From the NCBI RefSeq assembly GCF_024223415.1, contig NZ_CP100500.1: a stretch of DNA of 64,000 nucleotides; one strand, 5' to 3'. A program made the translations under genes and the position numbers. This stretch comes from Escherichia coli. Lineage in GTDB: Bacteria; Pseudomonadota; Gammaproteobacteria; Enterobacterales; Enterobacteriaceae. Within the stretch, counting starts at the first letter, position 1. Each line of letters begins with the position of its first letter. The notes below the pieces were generated by a model, which worked only from the letters and a program-made list of their open reading frames with translations, was not told the origin of the DNA and made no database searches. This document shows positions 30,507 to 48,115 of the stretch, one piece after another.

Positions 30507-30554
30507 AAGTGAATAAGTGAATAAGTGAATAAGTGAATAAGTGAATAAGTGAAT
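30507..30554. repeat. 8-bp tandem repeat (aagtgaat) x6 in the 5' leader of the antirestriction gene
   Basis: Six perfect tandem copies at 30507-30554 plus a partial copy overlapping the start codon region (30491-30501). Confidence 0.9.
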
Positions 30555-30594
30555 AGATAAGAGAGAAAAGGCTGCGCCTCTCAGGCAGAAGGCA

Positions 30595-31413
30595 TCAGCG
30601 CATACTCACCAGCAGCGTTTCCGCCATCACCCACAATGCACGATTGAGCTTAATGTCGGTATCAATGCTGTGAATGGCCCGGGTATGGATACGTTTTCCT
30701 TTTGCGCTGCGTCCCTGAAGACCGCCTTTGAGCATATTCTCCTGGATGGTCTGATAAGCACTCCACAGGTCCCTGCCGTAATCCTCCCGGCGTCGTGGTG
30801 TCAGAATGTCGGCGGTGGTGACGGGCTGATGTTCGTCACCATAACGGTAAGTCAGTGCCGCCTGTGCCAGCGCCTGACGAGCCGGTGGTGGTAAAATCAG
30901 CGACTGCATGGCATCACGCTTCTCCTCAATCCGGTCAAACACGCCCACAACCTCGTAAGCCCCTTCGATGACCCTGTCCACCACGTTTCCCCGGTGCGGG
31001 ACACGCACCTCTCCGAGAGACTGACCACAGACACATCCGTTCTGACACACGAACCGGAAGTAACCCGGCAGCATCTGGTAGCTGGAGGTACCGTCATGGG
31101 AGTTCAGCAGGATGATTTCAGGAACGTGCTGTCCGTTTATCTCCCCGTCACGGCGCAGACGCAGCATGTGCTTTGTGTATCCCCGGCGTCCCGGGTCACG
31201 CACGCGGGTCTGGCAGGCAAAGAACGGCTGAAAGCCTTCCCGCTGCAGGCTTTCCAGTACGGTGATGGTGGGGATGTATGTATAGTTCCGGCTCCGGGAG
31301 GTGTGCTTATCTTCCCCGAAAATCCCGGGCACATGGTGCATCAGCTCTTCACGGGTCAGCGGACGGTCACGGCGTATCTGGTTCGCATAACCGAAACGAC
31401 TGGCTAATCGCAT
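30595..31413 (-). CDS. DUF932-domain protein (YfjQ/YafZ family)
   Basis: 272 aa; conserved position and architecture in CP4-like islands. Confidence 0.7.
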   Translation of the reverse strand: MRLASRFGYANQIRRDRPLTREELMHHVPGIFGEDKHTSRSRNYTYIPTITVLESLQREGFQPFFACQTRVRDPGRRGYTKHMLRLRRDGEINGQHVPEIILLNSHDGTSSYQMLPGYFRFVCQNGCVCGQSLGEVRVPHRGNVVDRVIEGAYEVVGVFDRIEEKRDAMQSLILPPPARQALAQAALTYRYGDEHQPVTTADILTPRRREDYGRDLWSAYQTIQENMLKGGLQGRSAKGKRIHTRAIHSIDTDIKLNRALWVMAETLLVSMR

Positions 31414-31597
31414 ACTTTGCTCCTTATCGGTGGTTAATATTTACTGATGTAATAAATGAAAAAGCCGCGTCTCCCGGGGAAGACGCGCCTGATGGATGAA
31501 ATGAATGAGGGTTTACCGAAGTCCTTCAGCATTGAGGTGAAGCAGCCGGAAAGGTGTTACCTGGTCATCGACGGGTCAGGTCAAAAAGCGGGGACAT

Positions 31598-32482
31598 TCA
31601 GAACAGGCGATCCCACAGTGTGACCAGCAGGCGGATAATGCGATCACGGGCTTTGCGCAGAAGCTGCAGCATCCAGGCCGGAAAGCTGAACCGGGCAATG
31701 GCAGCGTCAAAACTCTGGCCGATGGCGTCACCAAAAGCCTGCTGTGCGTGTTGCTGATCCTGCGCAGTGCGCTTTTCATTCCGGATATGCGAATAAACCG
31801 CGCTGGTTGCCTGTGGTGGCAGGGCGTGGATCATCAGAGACACAAATGCCGGAAGATTCCAGCCGGCAGGGGCGGCTATGGGGAGTACCGGAAATGATGA
31901 AGGGAACAGGGTTGCCACCCGGGCTGTCACCGTCGCCAGTGAGAGTTCCTGCTGACGGGATGGCGTGCTGCTCTGGTTGTTCCATTCTTCAGCCGGGTGG
32001 ATGCGATCGGCATGGCTGAGAACAAACAGAAAACGCGAGGGATCGGCACCTTCATTCAGTAAAAACTGATGCATGGCGATGTCGGCAGCATACGCACGTT
32101 CATCAGCCCGCAGGATCCAGATAATCAGATCCAGTTCGGGCAGTAACTGACTGTAAAGTGCCCGGTATTCCTGATCATGCTGTGGTGTTTCGCCAGTGCC
32201 GGGCAGATCGACCAGCGTCATTCTTCGTTCACCGGGCTGAAAGGTAAGACGATGAGCCTGACGGGTGCAGCCGTTCAGCGGATGCGTGGCGCAGACACGG
32301 GACTGAAAAATGGCATTGCACAGGCTGCTTTTTCCGGCACCGGATTTACCCATAATGCCAATAACGGGTTCGTACTGAATGACGCTGCGAAGATGTTCAA
32401 GGATTTTCTGGCGAATTTCTTCAGGAAGAAAGGTCAGATGTGACTTTACGTGTGCGGAGAGGGAAGAATGGCTGAATGACAT
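31598..32482 (-). CDS. YeeP/YkfA/YfjP-family GTPase
   Basis: 294 aa; P-loop IGIMGKSGAGKSSLCNAIF; DLPG G3 motif; typical island GTPase. Confidence 0.8.
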   Translation of the reverse strand: MSFSHSSLSAHVKSHLTFLPEEIRQKILEHLRSVIQYEPVIGIMGKSGAGKSSLCNAIFQSRVCATHPLNGCTRQAHRLTFQPGERRMTLVDLPGTGETPQHDQEYRALYSQLLPELDLIIWILRADERAYAADIAMHQFLLNEGADPSRFLFVLSHADRIHPAEEWNNQSSTPSRQQELSLATVTARVATLFPSSFPVLPIAAPAGWNLPAFVSLMIHALPPQATSAVYSHIRNEKRTAQDQQHAQQAFGDAIGQSFDAAIARFSFPAWMLQLLRKARDRIIRLLVTLWDRLF

Positions 32483-32582
32483 ACCGTTATCCTGTTGATT
32501 TCACTGAACCGGATCACATTAATCCGGCCTATCAGTCAGGTAATATGGACGTGAAAATTTTTCCATTGACGGGAAGAAGAGT

Positions 32583-33806
32583 ATGGCTAAAAACAAAGGT
32601 ATCTGTCGGAATAAAAAATGCAGCAATCCTGTTTCAGAATTTGATGAGGCAAATGCCCTGAGGTTATGTGATGATCATTATCAGTTATGGAAACGAAATA
32701 AAGAGAACCGTCGGGTCAGGAATATTTGTCGTATAATCAGTAAATATGACAAAAGTCTGGACCGGGAGATATTTGACAGAGTAATAGATGCTGCAAGAAA
32801 TCAAACGGGAAAGAGAATTGTTGAGGACGCAAAAATATTACATCAATTGCGCAATTCAAAGCAAGTAAGAAAAAGTCTTCATAATGGAGTACTCCGGTCA
32901 CGGGAATGGCTCAATACACAGGAGTTACTGAGAAGAAAAAATATATCTGTTACAGGTGACTCATTTAAATCTTACATAAAGGATATTGTCAGATTATATT
33001 GCTATAAGTTTCTCTACAGCAGAGAATATCTTAATGAAAACGCATGCAAAAAACAATATCAGAGAGTTATTAACCCCAGAGAATTTAATGTTCCGATACT
33101 TCAACTTGAAGTTGCATGGATCAATAATAATTGCCGTTCAAGTGATTCAAGCTCTGATATTATCATCCTTCCCAGGATGATAAGAAGAATGGTTGTATTT
33201 AATGATACGAAGATAAATAAACAATTAGAGGAAATGTTGGGGGGGATAGCACGAAAAAAAGTCGCAGTAAGGAATAAAGGCGGTCTCTATACCAGAATAA
33301 AAAAAGAAAATGATTTTCGTTCTATGGATAGATTTATGGTGGAAATCGAAAATATCATAAGACCTGAAATATTTCCGACATCAATTTACCCGCCTTTTTC
33401 ACTTTCATTTATCGAGAGAGAATTGCCACTACTGAATCTGGCGCACTCACAGTACAAAAGAGCAATAAGTAAAAAAGTGGCGAATTCAATTTTTTATACT
33501 TTGCGAAAAACTCACGTGGCATTATGGCTGCATCTTGAAATGTTTGCTCTTGTGGCATTCATCAAACTGTATACAGGAAAAGGGTTTGAATTCATGAAAA
33601 ACATGTGTGTATTTATAGATTATGATAAAGGGATAATAAAATCCACGCATGAAGAACTGCTGAGTGAAATTAAGTGTAACATTCAGTTGAATTTAAAGGT
33701 GAATTCTGATAATTTTCCTGAATTAATAGAAGTATACAATTCATGCTTTAGTAAAAATATATTGTTGTATGATGTTCAGGATGATGGTTTTAAATGGTGT
33801 TTATGA
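32583..33806 (+). CDS. AT-rich orphan hypothetical protein with N-terminal Cys/His cluster
   Basis: 407 aa, Lys/Asn/Ile-rich, far lower GC than its surroundings; N-terminal CRNKKCSNP...CDDH could be a zinc-ribbon; no recognisable family. Confidence 0.5.
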   Translation: MAKNKGICRNKKCSNPVSEFDEANALRLCDDHYQLWKRNKENRRVRNICRIISKYDKSLDREIFDRVIDAARNQTGKRIVEDAKILHQLRNSKQVRKSLHNGVLRSREWLNTQELLRRKNISVTGDSFKSYIKDIVRLYCYKFLYSREYLNENACKKQYQRVINPREFNVPILQLEVAWINNNCRSSDSSSDIIILPRMIRRMVVFNDTKINKQLEEMLGGIARKKVAVRNKGGLYTRIKKENDFRSMDRFMVEIENIIRPEIFPTSIYPPFSLSFIERELPLLNLAHSQYKRAISKKVANSIFYTLRKTHVALWLHLEMFALVAFIKLYTGKGFEFMKNMCVFIDYDKGIIKSTHEELLSEIKCNIQLNLKVNSDNFPELIEVYNSCFSKNILLYDVQDDGFKWCL

Positions 33807-35304
33807 TGTGAAAATATTAAATTTATATTACATTTTAATTATCGACAAAAAACACATAAAGAAATCTAAAGGGAATGAGCGTCAAATGAGCTGATATAGC
33901 GCCAGTTTGGTATGGTCATGTGATTTGATGATTAAAGCTTACGGATAATAACACTCCTCTGTGAGCCATATAAATGAGCATGCCATAATCGTCAGTTCAG
34001 AGATAAAACTGACTGAATGATCTTATGTTATAGTAAGCAGTGTTTACCGGATACGATGACTTATCTCTCTCACATCATATGGATTCACTTTCATGGGGTA
34101 AAGCGATGGGACTACAGACGCTGATTATGATGGTTTGCTGTAAAGTTAGCACAAGTTTTTGCTGTACAGAATACGGAGTAAGAAAAATAATTCCAGAGTA
34201 AATCTGCTCTGCTTTTGAACAGAAAAGATTCATGCTTACCGTGAAAAACTGAAACCAACATTCAGTCTGCATGGATGTCTTAAGATGTTGAGAATGTCGG
34301 ATATGGTATTATATACACCTTTTCCATTAGGTCCTTTTATGTTTTCATTAAGTCGTTTTGTATGTATTCCTCCAGTGATTCATTAGTGCCTGTTTACGCA
34401 TTTACACACTTTTCCCATTAATCTCCTTTAAATGTGTTTCATTACGCATTGCTGTACACATTTTTGAACTGATACACATCCAAGTTAGTAAACCTGTCAG
34501 TTCTGATTTTACGTTAACTAAATCAGTTTAATGCTGCTGTAAAACAATCCTTCCTGTTTAAGCAATCAATCTGCTATTCGATTTTACTGATGTGACGTTT
34601 AACCTTTCCTGAGCTTTGGTTGTTTGTGGTTTTTGGTTTGTGTTTCGACGTTAAGCTGAGAAAAGTATCTTTACGCTAAATCAACCCGAACTTTCCTGAG
34701 GTGATCTGACGTTCTTTTCGATGTGCTTACGACGATTCTGTTAAACGACTTTCTGGATGTTTTGATAACAATCAGATTGAGGCATTAACGATTCCTGACG
34801 TTTTGCTTTTTCATGTAAGGTCATTGTTTTCGTCATGATGTGGTTTTTCTTCTTGCATTGCGAAAGTGTGATGATTGGTTTTGGTTTTTTGATTCAGATG
34901 AGATTTACGTTATCGATGGTTAATCGTTTTTATGGTGAGTAGTGAAACGTAACATTTTCGGGATGAGAAAATCGATTCTGATGGTGATGGGGATGATCGT
35001 GTTACGGCGTTATCTGTAAACAGGTTTTAAACGTGTCATTCGCATTCGTGATTGAGTTGTGTGATTAAGCTGTAGGTTTTGGCGTTGTTGTTGATTTGCA
35101 TTGCCAGGAAGCGTTCTGGTTGCGTTTCTGGTGTTTTGTTCGAATGTTCTGTGGATCCTTTTCCCTTCAGGCTTTTCTCGTCGTCCATGTCGTTTTTAAA
35201 TCCATTCATGCTGTTGTTGCGTGTTTTGCTGCTGTGTGCAGGATTATCTTTTCGTTCCGGGATGGTTTGTTCCGTTTCAATCACTCTTAATCAGAGAGTT
35301 GTAG

Positions 35305-35379
35305 CATTGCTTAATGACATGATGCCGTAAAGTTTTACCGCGGTGATTAATGATGTGAAGTCAATCCAAATCAACGGAG
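35305..35379 (+). promoter_or_regulatory. conserved leader motif upstream of Rep-like genes (second copy at 42311-42344)
   Basis: cattgcttaatga...tgtgaag...tcaa...cggag occurs just before the start at 35390 and again about 150 bp before the start at 42494; the 35k copy has an internal duplication of ttaatga. Confidence 0.4.
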
Positions 35380-35389
35380 ATCTCTCATC

Positions 35390-36121
35390 ATGAATCAACC
35401 AATACACAATGCTTACTGGTTATCCCGTTTTGACAGCCTTCTCGACAGTGCCCTGTCGCAGCACCGTGCCGTCTCGTTAATCCGGGTGGATTTACGTTTC
35501 CCTGAGTATATGCCTGTCACCATCATGGATCCCGATCCGGATTCAGCGGTGATTTCTCGTTTTTTCGAATCCCTGAAAGCCAAAATCCAGGCTTACCAGC
35601 GGAAAAAACGACGTGCCAACAAGCGTGTGCGTGCAACCACTCTGCGTTATTTCTGGTGTCGGGAGTTTGGCAAGGAAAAAGGCAGGAAACATTATCACGT
35701 GATATTGCTGCTCAACAAAGATACCTGGTGCTCGCCAGGGGATTTCAGCGAACCATCTTCGCTGGCGACGATGATCCTGGAGGCATGGTGCAGCGCCCTG
35801 CATCTTGAGGCCTGGCAGGGTAATGGACTGGTTCATTTTTCCAGGCGGACGCCTTTCCGTAAACCGACATCATCTGATGCTCGCCCTTCTTCCGATGATA
35901 CGCCTTTGTCGGGTGGATGTTCTGATACCAGGAAGGCTTCAGACAAAAAGCCGGGTGAAGCCGCTGTTCTCTGGATCAAGCGTGGTGATGTGGCAGCGAT
36001 GCAGAAAGCCCGGAAAAGAGCCCGTTATCTCGTGAAAAATCAAACGAAGCAGCATAATGGTTCCGGTCAACGTAATTATGGTTGCAGCCGTGGGCCGGGG
36101 CGTCTGCTGGATGGCAGGTGA
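35390..36121 (+). CDS. YagK/YfjJ-family protein (inovirus Gp2-like, HUH Rep-like)
   Basis: 243 aa; HUH-like motif KHYHVILLL; RBS ggag; preceded by a 1.5 kb noncoding leader. Confidence 0.65.
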   Translation: MNQPIHNAYWLSRFDSLLDSALSQHRAVSLIRVDLRFPEYMPVTIMDPDPDSAVISRFFESLKAKIQAYQRKKRRANKRVRATTLRYFWCREFGKEKGRKHYHVILLLNKDTWCSPGDFSEPSSLATMILEAWCSALHLEAWQGNGLVHFSRRTPFRKPTSSDARPSSDDTPLSGGCSDTRKASDKKPGEAAVLWIKRGDVAAMQKARKRARYLVKNQTKQHNGSGQRNYGCSRGPGRLLDGR

Positions 36122-36631
36122 AGTCTGTAAAACGGTATCCGGTGCCAGGGGGGGGATATCACGGTAAGGGCGTCAGCCAACGTCTTTCGCTCGTATTCTG
36201 ATAACCCGTCCTGAAGTCATGTATCTGCTTCCATTCTCATGTTCATATTTCTCTTACGCTTTCACTGTCTGTCATCGGAAGTACCGATTTATTTTGGTGC
36301 TGCGCACTTACGGCCATTCACGGAAGAGGATTGTGGTGAACAGTAGGAGTCTGGCTGCTGGCGAGGGAAGGTTCAGGACTGGTATGGGGTTTAGTGCTGG
36401 AGGATGACTTTGAATCCCGGATTGACCAGTGAGGGGGCAGTGAGAGGATGCTCTGGTGTAACAGGTCTGGATTACAAAATATAAAACCGGTTGTACACTC
36501 GTAACGGGTAAAAGGATACGGGCAATAACACGTGGTACCCGGTGAGACTGGCTCTTGTATCACATTACCGGGAATATTCTGGCAGGTGAAATGTTCTGAT
36601 AAGAATCATCCTGAGGGAGGATACAACGGAT

Positions 36632-37084
36632 ATGAACGTTATTGACAGCCGCATTCGTGATGTGAAATTTGGTGAAAATGTGAAAGTCGTCATGCCAGTA
36701 AACCTCTATGAATGTGAACTGGGGGATGATGTTTTTATCGGTCCCTTTGTGGAAATACAGAAGGGATGCATCATTGGCAACCGGAGCCGAATTCAGTCCC
36801 ACAGTTTCATCTGTGAGAACGTCATTTTAGGTGATGCCTGTTTCATCGGTCATGGCGTAACTTTTCCTAATGATCTGTTTAAGTGTGGTGGTCCCGATAC
36901 CTCTGCAGAAAGCTGGATACGCATCGTATTAGGTAACACTGTAACAGTGGGTAGTGGAGCGACCATTTTAACAACAGAAATTTGCAGTGGAGCTGTGATT
37001 GGTGCTGGTAGTGTGGTTACAAAGCCCGTGCTGGTAAAAGGCGTGTATGCGGGTAATCCGGCCAGACTTTTGAGAACGCTTTAA
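36632..37084 (+). CDS. hexapeptide-repeat (left-handed beta-helix) acetyltransferase
   Basis: 150 aa with repeated [LIV]-G-x-x-x-x hexapeptides (IGNRSRIQSHSFICENVILGDACFIGHGVTF...); RBS gaggga. Confidence 0.75.
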   Translation: MNVIDSRIRDVKFGENVKVVMPVNLYECELGDDVFIGPFVEIQKGCIIGNRSRIQSHSFICENVILGDACFIGHGVTFPNDLFKCGGPDTSAESWIRIVLGNTVTVGSGATILTTEICSGAVIGAGSVVTKPVLVKGVYAGNPARLLRTL

Positions 37085-37335
37085 TTATTGAATCCAATAT
37101 TAAACCAGACAGACAGTAAACATAATACTGTTCCGGATATCGCTTGCCGCAGGAACCTCCTTAACATTCAGGAAAATAAAGCTTTTATTGCTGCTATGTA
37201 CCATAAGAGACAGAAGTAATTGATTTACCAGTATTACACCTGTTGAAGCTATGGTTATTCACCTTTTATTTTTTGAGCAGCGTATTTATACTTCCCGGAG
37301 CATTGTTTAAATATAATCGCCCGGGATTGATTCGT

Positions 37336-38241
37336 ATGGCTCTTGAACAGGAAATCGCAAACCTTGTAAACGAGTTTGTCGCGGCTGGTCGTCCATCCTG
37401 TCGTGACCAGACCTTTGATGAACGCCGTGCCGGATATATCGCAAGTACTGCTCTGGCCGGCGATACAGAAACCCGCGTAAACATCAGTGATGTGATTATT
37501 GACGATGTTTTATTGCGCATATTTTCGCCTTTAAACGATGATGGGGTGTTATCCGCAATTGTCTATTATCATGGTGGCTGTTTTGTCAGTGGTGGTTTTG
37601 TAACCCATGATAATCAGTTGCGACAGCTTGCTTTCCTGAGCGGTTGTCGTGTCATTGCTGTACAATATCGATTAACGCCGGAACATATTTATCCTGCGGC
37701 ACATGACGATGCTGAACATGCCGCTAATATTGTGTGGCAACACGCAGAAATGTTGAAAGTTGATCGCAACAGAATAACGTTAATGGGGGATAGCGCTGGG
37801 GGACATCTTGCACTGATAACAGCACTGCGGGTTAAAAACATCGGTCAGTGGTTACCGCGAAAATTAATACTTATTTACCCTATGCTGGATGCCACAGCAT
37901 CATGTGATAGTTACAAATTAAACGGTAGTGACTATGTGCTGACAGCAGACACGTTTCTTAGTGGTTATGAGGCTTATTTTTCCGGTCAGGATTTAGAACA
38001 TCCGGAAGTGAGTCCATTATTCAGGAATGATTTCAATGGGTTACCACCTGTTCATGTCATCACAGCGGAATATGACCCATTACGCGATGAAGGTGAGGAA
38101 CTGTTTTCCCGTATGATTCAACAAGGAGTAAAGTGTACCGCCCAGCGTTATCTCGGTGTCATTCACGGTTTTTTCCAGCTTGGCGGCATTAGCCAGACAG
38201 CCCGTAATCTGATGCAGGATATTTGTGGGATTGTTAAATAA
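37336..38241 (+). CDS. alpha/beta hydrolase, esterase/lipase (HSL/Aes-like) family
   Basis: Oxyanion-hole motif HGGCF (YYHGGCFVSGG) and nucleophile motif GDSAGG; start placed at the internal Met MALEQEIANL (track ORF begins at 37243). Confidence 0.65.
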   Translation: MALEQEIANLVNEFVAAGRPSCRDQTFDERRAGYIASTALAGDTETRVNISDVIIDDVLLRIFSPLNDDGVLSAIVYYHGGCFVSGGFVTHDNQLRQLAFLSGCRVIAVQYRLTPEHIYPAAHDDAEHAANIVWQHAEMLKVDRNRITLMGDSAGGHLALITALRVKNIGQWLPRKLILIYPMLDATASCDSYKLNGSDYVLTADTFLSGYEAYFSGQDLEHPEVSPLFRNDFNGLPPVHVITAEYDPLRDEGEELFSRMIQQGVKCTAQRYLGVIHGFFQLGGISQTARNLMQDICGIVK

Positions 38242-38487
38242 TCACGTAACAAGCAGCTACAGGTAAATTAGCTGAGCATGCATCCATCATTTGTCGCTGC
38301 GATGCCAGACTTCCGGATGCTCATATGTTGTTTTACTTTTGTCAGCATAAATGCTGCGTCGGGACTGGTGAATGGAGATAAGCCATTTTATTATCGACGT
38401 CAGAGAACATACTCACAATGTCGGTATGTTTCTGAAATTAAGGGTAAGTTTTGCGCTGATTACAGTATGCGAAGGAGATCTGGCACA

Positions 38488-40080
38488 ATGAATCCCGCTT
38501 ATATGCAATCCCCCCATTTCCCGGCAGATTTAACATACAGATTATTTCCTCGTAAGCTTGCGTATCTCATTGACGACTTATATGAAAGTACCCAACTTCC
38601 GCTGGATCTCATTTTTAATACTGTACTGGCAACGCTCTCACTCTCCTGTCAGTCATTGGTTGACGTTGTTCATCCTCACACCAACATGCCGGAACCCTGC
38701 TCACTTTATCTGTTGACAATCGCAGAGCCAGGCGCGGGAAAAACAACGATAAACAGACTGGTGATGAACCCCTGTTACGACTTTGCCGATCGACTCATTC
38801 AACAATACGAAGAGAGAAACAAAGATTATAAAACTGAACTACAGATCTGGAATACCCGACAGAAAGCTCTTTCTGCCAGTTTAAGAAAGGCTATTAACCG
38901 GGGGTATCCGGGAGAACAGGAAGAAGAGGCGCTGCGTAATCACGAAAGAAATAAACCGACACGTCCGGTTCGACCGAATTTTATCTATGAAGATGTTTCA
39001 CTTAAAGCGCTTGTGGAAGGACTCAACGAGCATCCGGAGGCGGGAGTTATTTCTGATGAAGCGGTAACTTTTTTCAGAAGCTATCTGAAAAATAGTCCTG
39101 GTCTGTTGAATAAAGCATGGAGTGGACAACCGTTTGATTTTGGACGGGCTGACGAGAAATATCATATCACTCCACGCCTGACATTTTCGCTAATGTCCCA
39201 ACCGGATGTTTTTACGGCTTATATAAATAAAAATGATGTACTGGCCAGGGGAAGCGGATTTCTTTCCCGGTTTCTGTTCAGTCAGGTTGTAAGTTCTTCC
39301 TGGATACGTGATTATACGAGAGGTGAGTTCAGAACAATACCAACCCTGGAGAATTTTCATAAAAAGATTAACGGATTTCTGTTAAGCCATAACATTAATT
39401 CCCCCGGCATGAGCACCGAAAGGAAGACATTAAAACTTGCGAAGAAAGCGTTGGGGGAGTGGCAGGAAAACCAGAGTAAGATTGAAAGCAAAGCGCTTGC
39501 AGGAGGGGAGTGGGAACACATCAGAGATATTGTTCTGAAAGCAGGTTCTAATATACTGAGGATAGCGGGTTTATTCACCTTCTATGGCAATAAAGATGCT
39601 GAGGAAATTGAATCAATTGCGCTTTTTAACGCCATGCATCTCATGGACTGGTATCTGGAGGAGGCAAGCGCAATATTTTATCCCATGTCTGAGCGACGCC
39701 AGTTTGAGCAGGATGCCTGTGAACTGTATGCATGGATTATGACCCGAATCAGGCAGAATAACTGGTGTGCTATCAGGAAAACAGATATTGAAAGATATGG
39801 TCCCAATCGACTGAGAAGAGCAGAAAAGCTTACACCTGTACTCAATCAGTTAATTGCTCAGAATTATTTCTGTATCATCAAAATGCGCTCGCATCAGGCA
39901 CTTTATGTTTCTGTTCGTAACAATAATGGTTACCTCCTTCCTTTCGGCACAATGTCTTACGAACCGTTTGATGTTGTACCCTCCTTGTATAGTCATAATG
40001 CGAAAATATATCCCGTTAATATTCCACCGGAATTAATCCAGTCATTTGCGTTACCTTTTTCAGCCTATAACTTATTCTGA
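38488..40080 (+). CDS. DUF3987-like primase/helicase-type P-loop protein (YfjI-like)
   Basis: P-loop AEPGAGKTT; start placed at the Met with RBS aaggag (track ORF begins at 38278); typical partner of AlpA and Rep-like genes in P4-like islands. Confidence 0.65.
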   Translation: MNPAYMQSPHFPADLTYRLFPRKLAYLIDDLYESTQLPLDLIFNTVLATLSLSCQSLVDVVHPHTNMPEPCSLYLLTIAEPGAGKTTINRLVMNPCYDFADRLIQQYEERNKDYKTELQIWNTRQKALSASLRKAINRGYPGEQEEEALRNHERNKPTRPVRPNFIYEDVSLKALVEGLNEHPEAGVISDEAVTFFRSYLKNSPGLLNKAWSGQPFDFGRADEKYHITPRLTFSLMSQPDVFTAYINKNDVLARGSGFLSRFLFSQVVSSSWIRDYTRGEFRTIPTLENFHKKINGFLLSHNINSPGMSTERKTLKLAKKALGEWQENQSKIESKALAGGEWEHIRDIVLKAGSNILRIAGLFTFYGNKDAEEIESIALFNAMHLMDWYLEEASAIFYPMSERRQFEQDACELYAWIMTRIRQNNWCAIRKTDIERYGPNRLRRAEKLTPVLNQLIAQNYFCIIKMRSHQALYVSVRNNNGYLLPFGTMSYEPFDVVPSLYSHNAKIYPVNIPPELIQSFALPFSAYNLF

Positions 40081-40856
40081 AATAAACCAACACAGATGAA
40101 ACGAAAAAAAACAACATTCATTCGAAGGTTGGTGGTAAGGAGTTTGCATATCCTGCATCTGTGCAAATATTCACCAGTTATGGGGCGCGAACGAAAATTT
40201 CTCTGAAAAAATCGCTACGGTAGCAACAGTAGCAGCACATGCACCATGTCTGTTATTTGATTTTGTTTTCATAATGACCTGTTGTCAAAGCTGATTGAAT
40301 ACAGGAGTGTGCGCACTGGTGGAAGAGTGGCTTTCGTTTTTGGTTATTCGAAAGAAAATCGAAATATTGTTTTTAACATAGCTGAAGCTAATCATATAAC
40401 CATATTTTTTGAGTTTTTATATATAACTTTGTTTGATTCTTGTCGTAATGAGTGCTGGCGTATATGACGATGTCGCTCTCTTTCTGAATAACGAAAGGTT
40501 ATCAGTCTTTTACTGACAAGAGATGCTGTTCAGGTTTCAATGGGAGATTGAAGAAAAACGATTTGATATTTTCCGTGAGAGAATGTCTTGTCAGGTTCAT
40601 ATTCATAACGGATAATTTCTTATTTTCACTCATCAGACATGGATAATTTTAATTTAGGTTTATTACTATAATTAGTATCTGTTCCTTTATTTTTATCCAT
40701 CTATCCCTTTATTTTTCATCTATCTATCCTTTTATTATTAGTATCTGTATTTTTATTATTGGCATCTGTCTATTTATTTTTATCATTCTCTCCTCTCTGT
40801 CTTTACTCTCATTGCTCTTACTCTCATTCTGTTATTTCTACTCGTGTTATCGTGTT

Positions 40857-40944
40857 CACTCTATCACTCTATCACTCTATCACTCTATCACTCTATCACT
40901 CTATCACTCTATCACTCTATCACTCTATCACTCTATCACTCTAT
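40857..40944. repeat. 8-bp microsatellite (cactctat) x11 inside a pyrimidine-rich repeat-dense noncoding region
   Basis: Eleven perfect tandem copies; degenerate ~22-bp and ~14-bp repeats lie just upstream (40660-40856). Confidence 0.9.
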
Positions 40945-41689
40945 CCATCTCTCAATCATAACGATTGTCACTCATATGATACTCAGCCATGTTATTTTCT
41001 ACTGCTCTGCTGAGCTTATCTGTCTGTTCTCATCTTCAGTGAAACAGCACCTGATTTTACTCTTATCCATCATGAACTGTCTTTGTTCAACGATGATGGT
41101 ATGTCTGATATGTGTTAACCATTTTGATGGGTATCGTTGATTATCCGATGGTTAAGCTTCGATAAGGTTATCCATAGAACAGTGTGGGGTAAGCAACATG
41201 ATCCCTGATGATATTTGTTCCGTGTTGTCTTGTTGTTTAAGCGACAGGAAATATGTCAATGGCATGTTTTATTCTGCTGCCGTGAGCCATGCATGTTCTG
41301 AAGAACAGATTGAATGAGCGCATGTGAGTTTATTACGTTGGCCTTGTACACGTTTTTTTAGAACCACTGAGAGCAAGTTTGTAGTTTATGATGCTATTGG
41401 TCGTAATATGTTTCTTGAACTTTTGATCGTGGGTTTTTATCTCGTATTTTTCAGCATTTCTCGGTGTTGTATTGCGTCGATATTTTCTTTATTCCCGTTA
41501 ATATCATCTCGTCAGTGTCCATTCCTTTCATCACAATGCGTATCGTTAATAATCTGTTGTATCCATCCGCCTACAGCATGCCTGATAAATACCGTCTGTC
41601 AGTTATTACCGTTTTAGATCTGATTATGAGCGAAGGTATTCATTCGCTGACAGAACTTAAAACGTCATTAACTTACAGGAGTTATCAGC

Positions 41690-42240
41690 ATGCCTCAGTC
41701 TTACACACCAGACTGGTTTTTTACCGCCTTACTTGACCATCACATCGATCAAATGATGGCTCGCTATTCCTGTCTGCGGGCCTTACGGATGGATTTCTTC
41801 TACAGGAAAGAGACGCCTGATTTCTTACAACCTGATCACCGCTGGCTTGAATTGCAGTTGCGTATGCTGCTGGACCAGGTTGAACGGTTTGAAAATATGG
41901 TTGGTTTCTTCTGGGTGATTGAATGGACGGCTGATCATGGTTTTCATGCGCATGTGGTTTTCTGGATCGATCGTCAGAGGGTGAAAAAATATATCCCTTT
42001 GCGGAGCGGATAACCGAATGCTGGCGGGCTATTACGTATAACTGTGGTTCGGCGCACCGCTGTACATACCAGCCGCATTATGCATACAACATCAACATTC
42101 CCGTGCGCCACAACGATCCTGAAAGCATCGATAATATTCGCGGTGCCCTGCATTATCTGGCGAAAGAAGAGCAAAAAGACGGACTGTGTGCATACGGCTG
42201 CAGCGAAGTGCCTGAACGTCCTGCTGCAGGGCGACCACGC
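41690..42240 (+). pseudogene. YagK/YfjJ-family Rep-like gene, frameshifted
   Basis: MPQSYTPDWFF...DHGFHAHVVFWIDRQ (HUH-like HAH) then continues in another frame (...ITYNCGSAHRCTYQPHYAY...ALHYLAKEEQKDG...). Confidence 0.5.
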
Positions 42241-42493
42241 AAGCTTCACGTCTGAAGCTTAAACCCTGAACCTCCGCACCTGGAAACAAGCCATCGGTAA
42301 AAACTTACCGCATTGCTTAATGATGTGAACCGAAGTCAACGGAGTTCATTCACCCTGAATGTTCTTTCCTGATATTCCCGCTCAGCGTCGGTTCTTCACC
42401 TGTTCCATCAACCTCATCCGCAGCCTGTAACCCGTCAGCCCATCCATCCCCGGGCAGGACGCGTTGTGGGCTGCGCATAACGGAGCATATCCT

Positions 42494-43069
42494 ATGAATG
42501 CTTTCCCTTATTTCGACGACAGCATGGCCCCCTTCTGGCCTTCGTATCAGAACAAAGTTATTGGCGTTCTTGACCGTGCGCTGCGTGAGCAGTCCGGCTC
42601 CCGGATACGTCGTATCCTGCTTCGTCTGCCGTGGGAACCCGATAACACCTTCAGCAGCCGCAGGACCTGGTTCGGTATGGCCTTTATTGAAACCGTCAGC
42701 GACCTGATGAATGCAACCCCCGGACGTGACCTCTGCTGGCTCCTGACACGTCATCCTGAAAAGCTGGAATACCACGTGGTGCTGTGCGTCAGGCAGGAGT
42801 ATTTCGACGGCCCTGAACTGGATCGGCTGATTCTGGATGCCTGGAGCAACGTGCTGGGCTTCGCCTCACCGGGGGAAGCGGCACCGTATCAGAAGCAGAT
42901 TACCCGGGATGTGCTGCTGGATCCCCGTTCACCGGACTGCGAGGAACTGTTCAGAGACCTGATCTGGGCGTTCAGTGATTTCGCACGTGATCGCCGGGGG
43001 GTATACGATCCGGAAGCCCGTCACCTCGCCGGTAATCCCTGGTATCCCGGATCAGCAGGACGGCGCTGA
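42494..43069 (+). CDS. YagK/YfjJ-family-like protein
   Basis: Start at the ATG with RBS ggag (MNAFPYFDD...); ...EYHVVLCVRQEYF... region; sits between the frameshifted paralog and alpA. Confidence 0.5.
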   Translation: MNAFPYFDDSMAPFWPSYQNKVIGVLDRALREQSGSRIRRILLRLPWEPDNTFSSRRTWFGMAFIETVSDLMNATPGRDLCWLLTRHPEKLEYHVVLCVRQEYFDGPELDRLILDAWSNVLGFASPGEAAPYQKQITRDVLLDPRSPDCEELFRDLIWAFSDFARDRRGVYDPEARHLAGNPWYPGSAGRR

Positions 43070-47125: not shown

Positions 47126-48115
47126 GTGAGCAGCAGGAAAGAGAAAAATACGCCCACGCCGCATGATGCCGCCTTCAGGGCGTTTATGGCCTCAGCAGAG
47201 GTGGCCCGTGATTTTGTTGAACTGCATCTTCCGGCGGAATACCGGCAGTTGTGTGATCTGTCGACGCTGCGGCTGGAGCCCTGTACCTTTGTGGACCAGG
47301 ATCTGAAACAGTATGCGTGCGATGCGCTGTTCAGCATGAAGACCGTCAGCGGTGAGGAGGGGTATATTTATTGCCTCGCGGAACACCAGAGTACGGAAAA
47401 CGCGTTTATGGCGTTCAGGATGCTCAGATATGCGGTGGCGGCGATGCAGCGTCACTTTGAACAGCACCATGAGCTGCCGCTGGTGATCCCGCTGTTATTC
47501 TACCACGGTGAGCGGAGCCCGTACCCGTACAGCATGAACTGGCTGGAGTGTTTCAGAAATCCGGAACTTGCTGCTAAAATCTACACCAGACCGTTCCACC
47601 TGGTGGACGTGACGGTACTGGATGACGATGAGATAATGCAACACCGCCGAATGGGGGCACTGACGCTGCTGATGAAACACAGCCGCAGCCGCGACATCAT
47701 GCTGCAGATGGACAGGCTGGTTCAGCTGATACAGACTTCACTGAATGAAGAGCTGGCGAAGGCTCTGTTCCACTATCTGCTGAACGGCAGTGAACATGTG
47801 ACGGTAAGGTTTTTGCAGACGCTGGCGGAGCGGCTGCCACAGCATGAGGGCAACATAATGACACTGGCTGAACAACTGAAGCAGGAAGGGGAAGTCAAGG
47901 GATTTGAGCGCGGTATTGCCCAGGGTATGGAGCGCGGTAAGCTAGAAGGCAGAATGGAAGGCAGAATGGAAGGCCGTGCCGAAGGGCGACTCGAAGGACA
48001 ACTGGAAGGCAAACTGGAAACGGCGCGTAATATGTTGGCTGAAGGAATGGGGCTTCAGACCATCATGAAAATCACGGGATTGAGTGAAGAACAGCTGAAA
48101 AAAATCAGCCACTGA
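47126..48115 (+). CDS. Rpn-family recombination-promoting nuclease (YhgA-like, PD-(D/E)XK)
   Basis: 329 aa; N-terminal ...HDAAFRAFMASAEVARDFVELHLP... and C-terminal EGRMEGRMEGRAEGRLEGQLEGKLE repeats typical of Rpn/YhgA-like proteins. Confidence 0.8.
   Translation: MSSRKEKNTPTPHDAAFRAFMASAEVARDFVELHLPAEYRQLCDLSTLRLEPCTFVDQDLKQYACDALFSMKTVSGEEGYIYCLAEHQSTENAFMAFRMLRYAVAAMQRHFEQHHELPLVIPLLFYHGERSPYPYSMNWLECFRNPELAAKIYTRPFHLVDVTVLDDDEIMQHRRMGALTLLMKHSRSRDIMLQMDRLVQLIQTSLNEELAKALFHYLLNGSEHVTVRFLQTLAERLPQHEGNIMTLAEQLKQEGEVKGFERGIAQGMERGKLEGRMEGRMEGRAEGRLEGQLEGKLETARNMLAEGMGLQTIMKITGLSEEQLKKISH

Follow-up and report, generated by a model that had tools for sequence, protein, structure and literature searches.

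A perfect tandem repeat placed directly in front of a gene raises the question of whether changes in its copy number switch that gene, tune it, or do neither. The repeat considered here lies in the leader of an antirestriction gene of Escherichia coli, and a sequence-only reading had proposed that slipped-strand changes in copy number would alter promoter spacing and so make it a phase-variable switch. The window in which it was analyzed is the whole stretch of 64,000 nucleotides, and related loci in other genomes provide the comparison.

A regular-expression search of the 64-kb window places exactly six perfect AAGTGAAT units on the plus strand at 30507..30554, and Tandem Repeats Finder (TRF) reports the array at 30506..30555 with a period of 8, 6.2 copies, 100% matches, and a score of 100, so that the repeat first noticed from the sequence alone is confirmed by both methods. 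TRF detects just one other perfect array in the window. Simple arithmetic puts the chance of six perfect copies of an 8-mer in 64 kb at about 64000 x 4^-40, or roughly 5e-20; an array such as (AAGTGAAT)x6 cannot arise by chance. Because the flanking genes lie on the minus strand, it is best read as (ATTCACTT)x6. The elements of the leader are as follows.

30571..30601, minus strand: hairpin spanning the DUF932 stop codon (GCGCTGATGCCTTCTGCCTGAGAGGCGCAGC), present in minimum-free-energy and centroid structures and weakly terminator-like
30555..30570, minus strand: pyrimidine tract without G, CTTTTCTCTCTTATCT, lying between hairpin and array, from sequence
30507..30554, minus strand: perfect octanucleotide repeat, which reads (ATTCACTT)x6 in the sense direction and (AAGTGAAT)x6 on the plus strand, from TRF and regular expression; the hypervariable part
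30502..30506, minus strand: Shine-Dalgarno (SD) sequence AAGGA of ardB, adjoining the last repeat unit, with 8 nt between it and the ATG, from sequence

Along the minus strand the order is thus GCGC TGA (the DUF932 stop codon, 30597..30595), TGCCTTCTGCCTGAGAGGCGCAGC, CTTTTCTCTCTTATCT, (ATTCACTT)6, AAGGA, TTTCACTT, and ATG (30493), with the array making up most of the 101-nt gap between the DUF932 gene and ardB. Just 13 nt (AAGGATTTCACTT), which include the SD at 30506..30502, separate the array from the start codon, a distance originally given as about 14 nt, and placement of the array in the leader and ribosome-binding region is supported by the direct contact between its last unit and the SD. 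The array itself contains no G, and with CTTTTCTCTCTTATCT it forms a G-free run of about 64-67 nt, and no longer one occurs on the minus strand anywhere in the window.

The genes on either side of this leader, and the one that follows, were assigned from profile matches and database relatives.

30595..31413, minus strand: DUF932 gene, 272 aa, immediately upstream of ardB on the same strand (Pfam PF06067, E 2e-51; RefSeq relatives)
30020..30493, minus strand: ardB, antirestriction gene of the ArdB/KlcA family, 157 aa (Pfam PF03230, PDB 2WJ9, RefSeq relatives)
29532..30008, minus strand: RadC/JAB-domain gene, next downstream in the same-strand cluster (NCBIfam TIGR00608, 146 bits, above cut-off; annotation of relatives)

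That the gene downstream of the array is an antirestriction gene, as first named, is borne out by the match of its product to PF03230 (Antirestriction, E 1.3e-36) and to PDB 2WJ9 over its full length (E 3.2e-94, residues 1-157). It also matches KlcA (PDB 2KMG, E 7.7e-21), and near-identical loci in RefSeq are annotated with the same start codon and the product name "antirestriction protein." NCBIfam returned no family for either ArdB or DUF932; Pfam matched both. From the open reading frames of the window, these profile matches, and the RefSeq annotation of near-identical loci, a same-strand cluster with short gaps can be assembled in the order GTPase, DUF932, ArdB, RadC, DUF987, antitoxin, CbeA/YeeU, and CbtA. 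The cluster is part of a CP4-like E. coli island that also carries an integrase gene (24963..23698, minus strand) and ParDE, YfjI, gpII-like (YagK/YfjJ), and AlpA genes.

Some proteins of this type are active against restriction: ArdB_CFT from E. coli CFT073 and the products of K-12 yafX and yfjX block type I restriction in vivo (PMC2836571), and the K-12 counterparts yafX-ykfG-ykfH-yafW-ykfI apparently form one operon (PMC5371832). ArdB_CFT, encoded in PAI II of CFT073, is near-identical to the ArdB of the window (2WJ9), has the same length, and has the same DUF932/RadC/CbtA neighborhood. The leader lacks a tandem array in the genes of K-12 type (yafX in CP4-6, yfjX in CP4-57) and in most other paralogues. 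The DUF932-ArdB pair is matched in 4440 of 5426 complete E. coli genomes, at a median of 3 places per genome, and the perfect array is rare, being found among complete genomes only in AR_0085 and GF60. Within the island family, an identical 294-aa GTPase is linked to different DUF932-ArdB modules across strains, those of loci L112-L114, with an ArdB of 159 aa and no array, versus that of L111, with an ArdB of 157 aa and an array; this linkage shows mosaic recombination inside the family.

Whether the copy number varies among strains can be answered from loci gathered by exact-protein look-ups (ArdB, DUF932, RadC, and GTPase) and from complete genomes, a small sample of 16 independent perfect-array loci, the window and 15 other E. 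coli assemblies, drawn partly from draft assemblies. The alleles are distributed as follows.

6 copies, 2 loci: window, AR_0085
5 copies, 9 loci: GF60, GCA_044153365, GCA_900482235, GCA_028883795, GCA_017045955, GCA_044688205, GCA_044068455, GCA_027274645, GCA_053151395
4 copies, 1 locus: GCA_018022435
3 copies, 3 loci: GCA_900603975, GCA_030809735, GCA_019303215

Outside the array, the DUF932-ardB intergenic region is identical base for base across the perfect-array alleles, and the alleles always differ by exact multiples of 8 bp. In an alignment of 2148 columns that takes in DUF932, ArdB, RadC, and sequence beyond, seven loci (L004, L015, L016, L018, L019, L020, and L022) show zero substitutions while carrying 5, 3, 5, 6, 4, 5, and 3 copies, respectively. 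As these loci range from 3 to 6 copies with no flanking substitution at all, the array changes much faster than point substitutions arise: whole 8-bp units are gained and lost far more quickly than substitutions build up in the flanks. The slippage-type variation that had been suspected is thereby found, with 3, 4, 5, and 6 copies among the 16 loci, and the suggested comparison among strains shows a copy number that is not invariant even where the flanks do not differ. Errors of assembly or sequencing are a very improbable source of these differences. Several of the loci do come from short draft contigs, but an array of 24-48 bp is shorter than a sequencing read, every difference is an exact multiple of 8 bp, and alleles also differ among complete or multi-megabase assemblies (AR_0085 with 6 copies; GF60, L020, L122, and L127 with 5). 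Judged from these alleles, the array is a genuine slippage-prone repeat, that is, a variable-number tandem repeat (VNTR). Replication slippage would be the source of its copy-number changes, and in E. coli an 8-nt loop escapes mismatch repair.

The origin of the array can be approached through its relatives. A sister lineage (L005, L006, L007, and L120-L126), with flanks 92-94% identical, carries an interrupted array of the same ATTCACTT unit, which reads ATTCACTT ATTC/ATTT ATTCACTT ATTTCCTT AATTCACTT GTTCACTT ATTCACTT AAGG. This interrupted form is identical in five assemblies (L120, L121, L123, L125, and L126), its sole variant being L006, which is one unit shorter. Instability thus depends on repeat purity, with the pure array varying and the interrupted array stable except in L006, and such a pattern is the classical behavior of slippage-prone repeats. 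More distant paralogues have no array and instead show a single conserved T-rich, G-poor motif of the type CATTCATTTACTT / CATTTATTTGTT immediately 5' of the SD (CATTCATTTACTTTTTATAAGGA, CACATTTATTTGTTATTTAAGGAG, or GCATTTATTTGTCCTTTAAGGAG), and in all of the paralogous intergenic regions AAGGA or AAGGAG lies at the same distance from the ATG. Because the paralogues carry this pre-SD motif singly, the array can be understood as a tandem amplification of the leader motif of the family. In the lineage of the window it would have been kept pure or re-homogenized, and in the sister lineage it would be decaying.

Searches beyond E. coli were also made. A 31-mer consisting of two units, the SD, and the ATG gave 0 matches in JGI metagenome contigs, and a three-unit 24-mer gave 76 matches in GTDB representative genomes, all in unrelated taxa and none in Enterobacteriaceae, a result uninformative on the ardB locus. 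These matches include Gastranaerophilales, Prevotella, Vibrio, and Acinetobacter. Arrays of 3 or more copies of ATTCACTT thus occur in 76 loci of unrelated bacteria (L023-L098), for example in Shewanella (L084/L085), and in Acinetobacter baretiae (L093, 5627-5794) there are at least 21 copies of ATTCACTT.

The account that we hold with moderate confidence is that the repeat is a slippage-prone octanucleotide VNTR, derived by tandem amplification of the pyrimidine-rich pre-SD motif of ardB, and that its effect on expression is nil or modest and graded. A central issue for this account is whether the repeat could instead act through a promoter. In a consensus scan of 29900-32700, no sigma-70-like promoter was found on either strand, where shuffled sequences average 2.1. 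When constructs carrying 3-6 units were scanned with relaxed criteria, only matches of 7-8 of 12 positions came up, each of which falls entirely 5' of the array or entirely within it, and no element pair straddles the array at these copy numbers. The best of them, CTGAGA-16-TCTTAT (8/12), lacks the conserved A of the -10 element, lies wholly upstream, and would start transcription at the first unit of the array. The best pair within the array, TTCACT-16-TATTCA (7/12), lacks the conserved final T of the -10 element, and its spacing is independent of copy number.

These results bear directly on the proposal that the repeat forms the spacer of the ardB core promoter, or overlaps it, so that slippage shifts the spacing of the -35 and -10 elements and turns the gene on and off. 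The copy number does vary, as this proposal expects, and the repeat offers TTCACT (4/6 to TTGACA) and TATTCA (3/6 to TATAAT) at a 16-bp spacing. The hairpin upstream of the array, together with the U-rich tract that follows the DUF932 stop, could moreover be a partial terminator, in which case a promoter inside the array or close to it would be needed; a terminator-like match at 30582..30566 does not exceed what shuffled sequences give. Against the proposal stand the strict scan and the fact that pairs within the array keep their spacing at any copy number. In addition, since only the 13 nt of SD and spacer lie 3' of the array, no -10 element is possible there if the SD is to be kept in the mRNA, and some paralogues have an intergenic region of 54 nt, leaving no room for an independent promoter plus a leader. 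By the same layout a position 5' of a core promoter is likewise impossible for the array. The single-strand arrangement of the gene cluster, whose K-12 counterparts apparently make up one operon (PMC5371832), also speaks against the proposal. The claim that copy number alters promoter spacing is therefore not upheld, with no promoter in the scans and no site for a -10 element downstream, and a promoter-based switch is highly unlikely.

The only geometry that appears to fit is one in which the array is transcribed, either within an intercistronic leader or at the 5' end of a short 5' untranslated region. From the consensus scans and the gene layout only, we infer that DUF932 and ardB would be co-transcribed with no internal promoter. 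On the VNTR account, the array would then be carried in the DUF932-ardB intercistronic leader or 5' untranslated region as a G-free, unstructured tract that measures about 40 nt with 3 copies and 67 nt with 6 and ends exactly at the SD. The SD-ATG geometry is identical in every allele, and with SD, 8-nt spacer, and start codon all unaltered, ardB should be translatable in all of them. It follows that a change in copy number would be expected to have a nil or modest graded effect, for which two routes may be envisaged: a longer array could present a longer single-stranded landing platform for the ribosome or for S1 at ardB, or it could alter polarity on the downstream genes from radC to cbeA-cbtA. 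An ON/OFF switch is not expected; the phase-variable switch first suggested is accordingly an unlikely behavior for alleles that all preserve this geometry.

Structure predictions for the leader RNA give a similar picture. When the 3' end of DUF932, the leader, and the 5' end of ardB are folded together, the hairpin at the DUF932 stop codon is the only stable element predicted. The array is 60-80% unpaired in the predicted ensemble, the leader is no more structured than shuffled sequences (z = -0.05), and the predicted accessibility of the SD, from a thermodynamic model only, is 0.14-0.15 at every copy number from n = 2 to n = 12. A switch based on RNA structure was rejected on the flat accessibility and the z score. 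Rfam, searched at E<=1 over 28000-43000, returned only two sub-threshold chance matches, neither of them at either array. As a Rho-loading (rut) tract the sequence is a weak candidate, with only 26% C and a C-minus-G window (0.23) that ranks fourth in the operon. A reading in which an upstream open reading frame or an N-terminal extension of ArdB runs through the array was likewise set aside: the array has no stop codon in any frame, but it also has no ATG, GTG, or TTG, and the sole start belongs to a 4-codon mini-ORF that overlaps the DUF932 stop. In the 5-copy allele the DUF932 and ardB frames coincide with a single TGA between them, which is regarded as a coincidence.

Some features of the hairpin region recur in the family. 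In the paralogues L002, L003, and L105-L110 a hairpin is found at the same place with different stems (CACTGAAAGTG, TTCCCTGAGTGAGGGAA) and a common CCCTGA(A/G) motif, and in several lineages the 4-codon mini-ORF (ATG CCN TYT NCC TGA) overlaps the DUF932 stop. The hairpin could serve in processing or attenuation as a conserved element.

If the array is not a switch, it may still tune expression. In this alternative, which we regard as possible but doubtful, copy number sets the expression of ArdB and of the downstream operon in a graded way, as it does for hmw1A/hmw2A. The array is hypermutable and abuts the SD, paralogues conserve the amplified motif directly before the SD, and the resulting 67-nt G-free run is the longest of its strand. 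A/U-rich leaders can act as translational enhancers, and the unit UUCACUUA resembles those of which the T7 gene 10 leader is an example, a likeness that counts in favor of tuning. Graded effects of leader repeats are, moreover, documented (PMC12721329).

As a possible regulator, the ardB array has its closest analogue in the hmw repeat, from which it nevertheless differs in several features. In hmw1A/hmw2A of Haemophilus influenzae, expression falls gradually as the copy number of (ATCTTTC)n in the 5' untranslated region rises; the hmw arrays contain 11 units or more, and base-pairing of 10 units with a G-rich arm gives a long hairpin that is processed by RNase III (PMC12721329; PMC8262952). 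The two systems share a repeat of 7-8 bp located 5' of the start codon, a position in the leader, and a copy number that varies by slippage. The ardB array, unlike those of hmw, has 3-6 units, no G-rich partner, and a predicted unpaired state, and because no comparable hairpin is predicted, the ardB locus is not filed in the hmw family. Further evidence against tuning is that SD accessibility is predicted not to change with copy number, that the sister lineage has let its array decay by point mutation, and that the C-minus-G rank does not single out the array for a role in Rho loading. The lengths of the leaders across the family also argue against it: the paralogous DUF932-ardB intergenic regions vary from 54 to 265 nt, so that leader length as such is tolerated rather than tightly constrained. 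Any effect of the array on expression is probably graded or nil.

The same island carries a second perfect array, an element of the same kind as the one in the ardB leader.

40856..40943, plus strand: second perfect octanucleotide repeat (TCACTCTA)x11, from TRF; in a long AT-rich, G-poor intergenic region, outside the ardB leader

About 775 nt separate this array from the YfjI/DUF3987 gene that precedes it, and about 750 nt from the gpII-like (YagK/YfjJ) gene that follows. It too is variable: the window has 11 copies, and seven further E. coli loci whose flanks are identical have 4, 5, 5, 7, 7, 10, and 11. It is G-free on the plus strand, where it starts the longest G-free run of that strand (108 nt), and it has a TCACT core in common with the ATTCACTT array. 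Its surroundings, a very AT-rich and G-poor intergenic region of roughly 1.6 kb with no convincing open reading frame, include degenerate tandem repeats of 23 bp and 21 bp (TATCTATCCCTTTATTTTTATC-like), scored 86 and 72 by TRF, just upstream, at 40676-40786 on the plus strand. The gpII-like (REP_ORF2-G2P) gene at 41690-42013 (plus strand) encodes 107 aa in the window and in GCA_900482235 (L102) and 188 aa in GF60 and four other loci; by this comparison, a truncation or frameshift has probably affected the gene in the window. Relative to the region 25000-41000 of the window, the island of GF60 (L009) contains extra IS2, IS100 (inside cbtA), IS21-family, and IS3-family elements, because of which the two arrays are 15.7 kb apart in GF60 and 10.4 kb apart in the window. 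Elsewhere in the window, at 47906-48019 on the plus strand, a cluster of 12-bp tandem repeats, one of them perfect with 2.5 copies (GAAGGCAGAATG), lies inside the open reading frame 47126..48115 and is probably a coding repeat.

The presence of two arrays invites explanations that unite them. One is that each 8-bp unit is an operator for a small repressor, with copy number setting the degree of repression and (TCACTCTA)n binding the same factor. MetJ, which binds tandem 8-bp metboxes, and the omega protein, which binds 7-bp heptads, provide models, and the two arrays of the island are both intergenic, have units of equal length, and share the TCACT core. Such operators nevertheless seem improbable here: no candidate regulator was identified, there is no promoter in the scans for one to regulate, and most paralogues have no array of any kind. 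The units, moreover, are 100% identical while their number drifts from 3 to 6, which is the signature of recent slippage and not of selection on binding sites. A second unifying explanation, for which we would allow some chance but expect not to hold, is that the island contains two true contingency loci made of G-free octanucleotide repeats and that slippage in the ardB leader stochastically tunes the dose of ArdB, RadC, and CbeA/CbtA. To our knowledge, contingency loci based on repeats are very rare in E. coli. Selection for variability, rather than neutrality, could be what underlies the amplification of the conserved pre-SD motif and the occurrence in a single island of two hypervariable 8-bp arrays.

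Among described systems, the ardB array is in its mode of mutation a VNTR like the loci used for MLVA typing in Enterobacteriaceae, including E. coli and Salmonella Typhimurium (e.g. PMC5183578). Like the ardB array, they have a short perfect unit, change by whole units between close strains, and often lie in intergenic or horizontally acquired DNA, and they require no phenotype. The ardB array differs from them in being confined to a minor lineage of one island module and in adjoining the ribosome-binding site of an anti-defense gene. In nadA of Neisseria meningitidis, (TAAA)n lies upstream of the core promoter and between operators (PMC2791445). That repeat is likewise intergenic, and its length changes the geometry of cis-elements and not a reading frame; the ardB leader, by contrast, has no room for a core promoter downstream of its array. 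A literature search with the (ATTCACTT)n and (TCACTCTA)n sequences returned only unrelated primers and siRNAs, and no description of the ardB-leader repeat was found in the literature searched on the DUF932, antirestriction, RadC, and CbtA genes or on yfjX/yafX. We know of no typing scheme that includes the ardB array. It is an intergenic hypervariable repeat of a familiar class, and its site against the ribosome-binding site of an anti-defense gene is mildly interesting.

For the biology of these islands, the variation observed documents that a repeat built of 8-bp units is unstable when carried on an E. coli chromosome, consistent with the escape of 8-nt loops from mismatch repair. If copy number does set expression in a graded way, the island would have heritable but rapidly reversible heterogeneity in its anti-restriction capacity. 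Tuning of ArdB by the repeat would create sub-populations that differ in the escape of incoming or resident mobile DNA from type I restriction, and would add a new layer to the balance of defense and anti-defense in E. coli islands. Were both arrays true contingency loci, the one in the ardB leader would represent the first repeat-driven bet-hedging switch on an anti-defense gene of an E. coli mobile element. If instead the variation is neutral, as is more likely, both arrays would serve as a fast molecular clock able to separate isolates with identical flanks.
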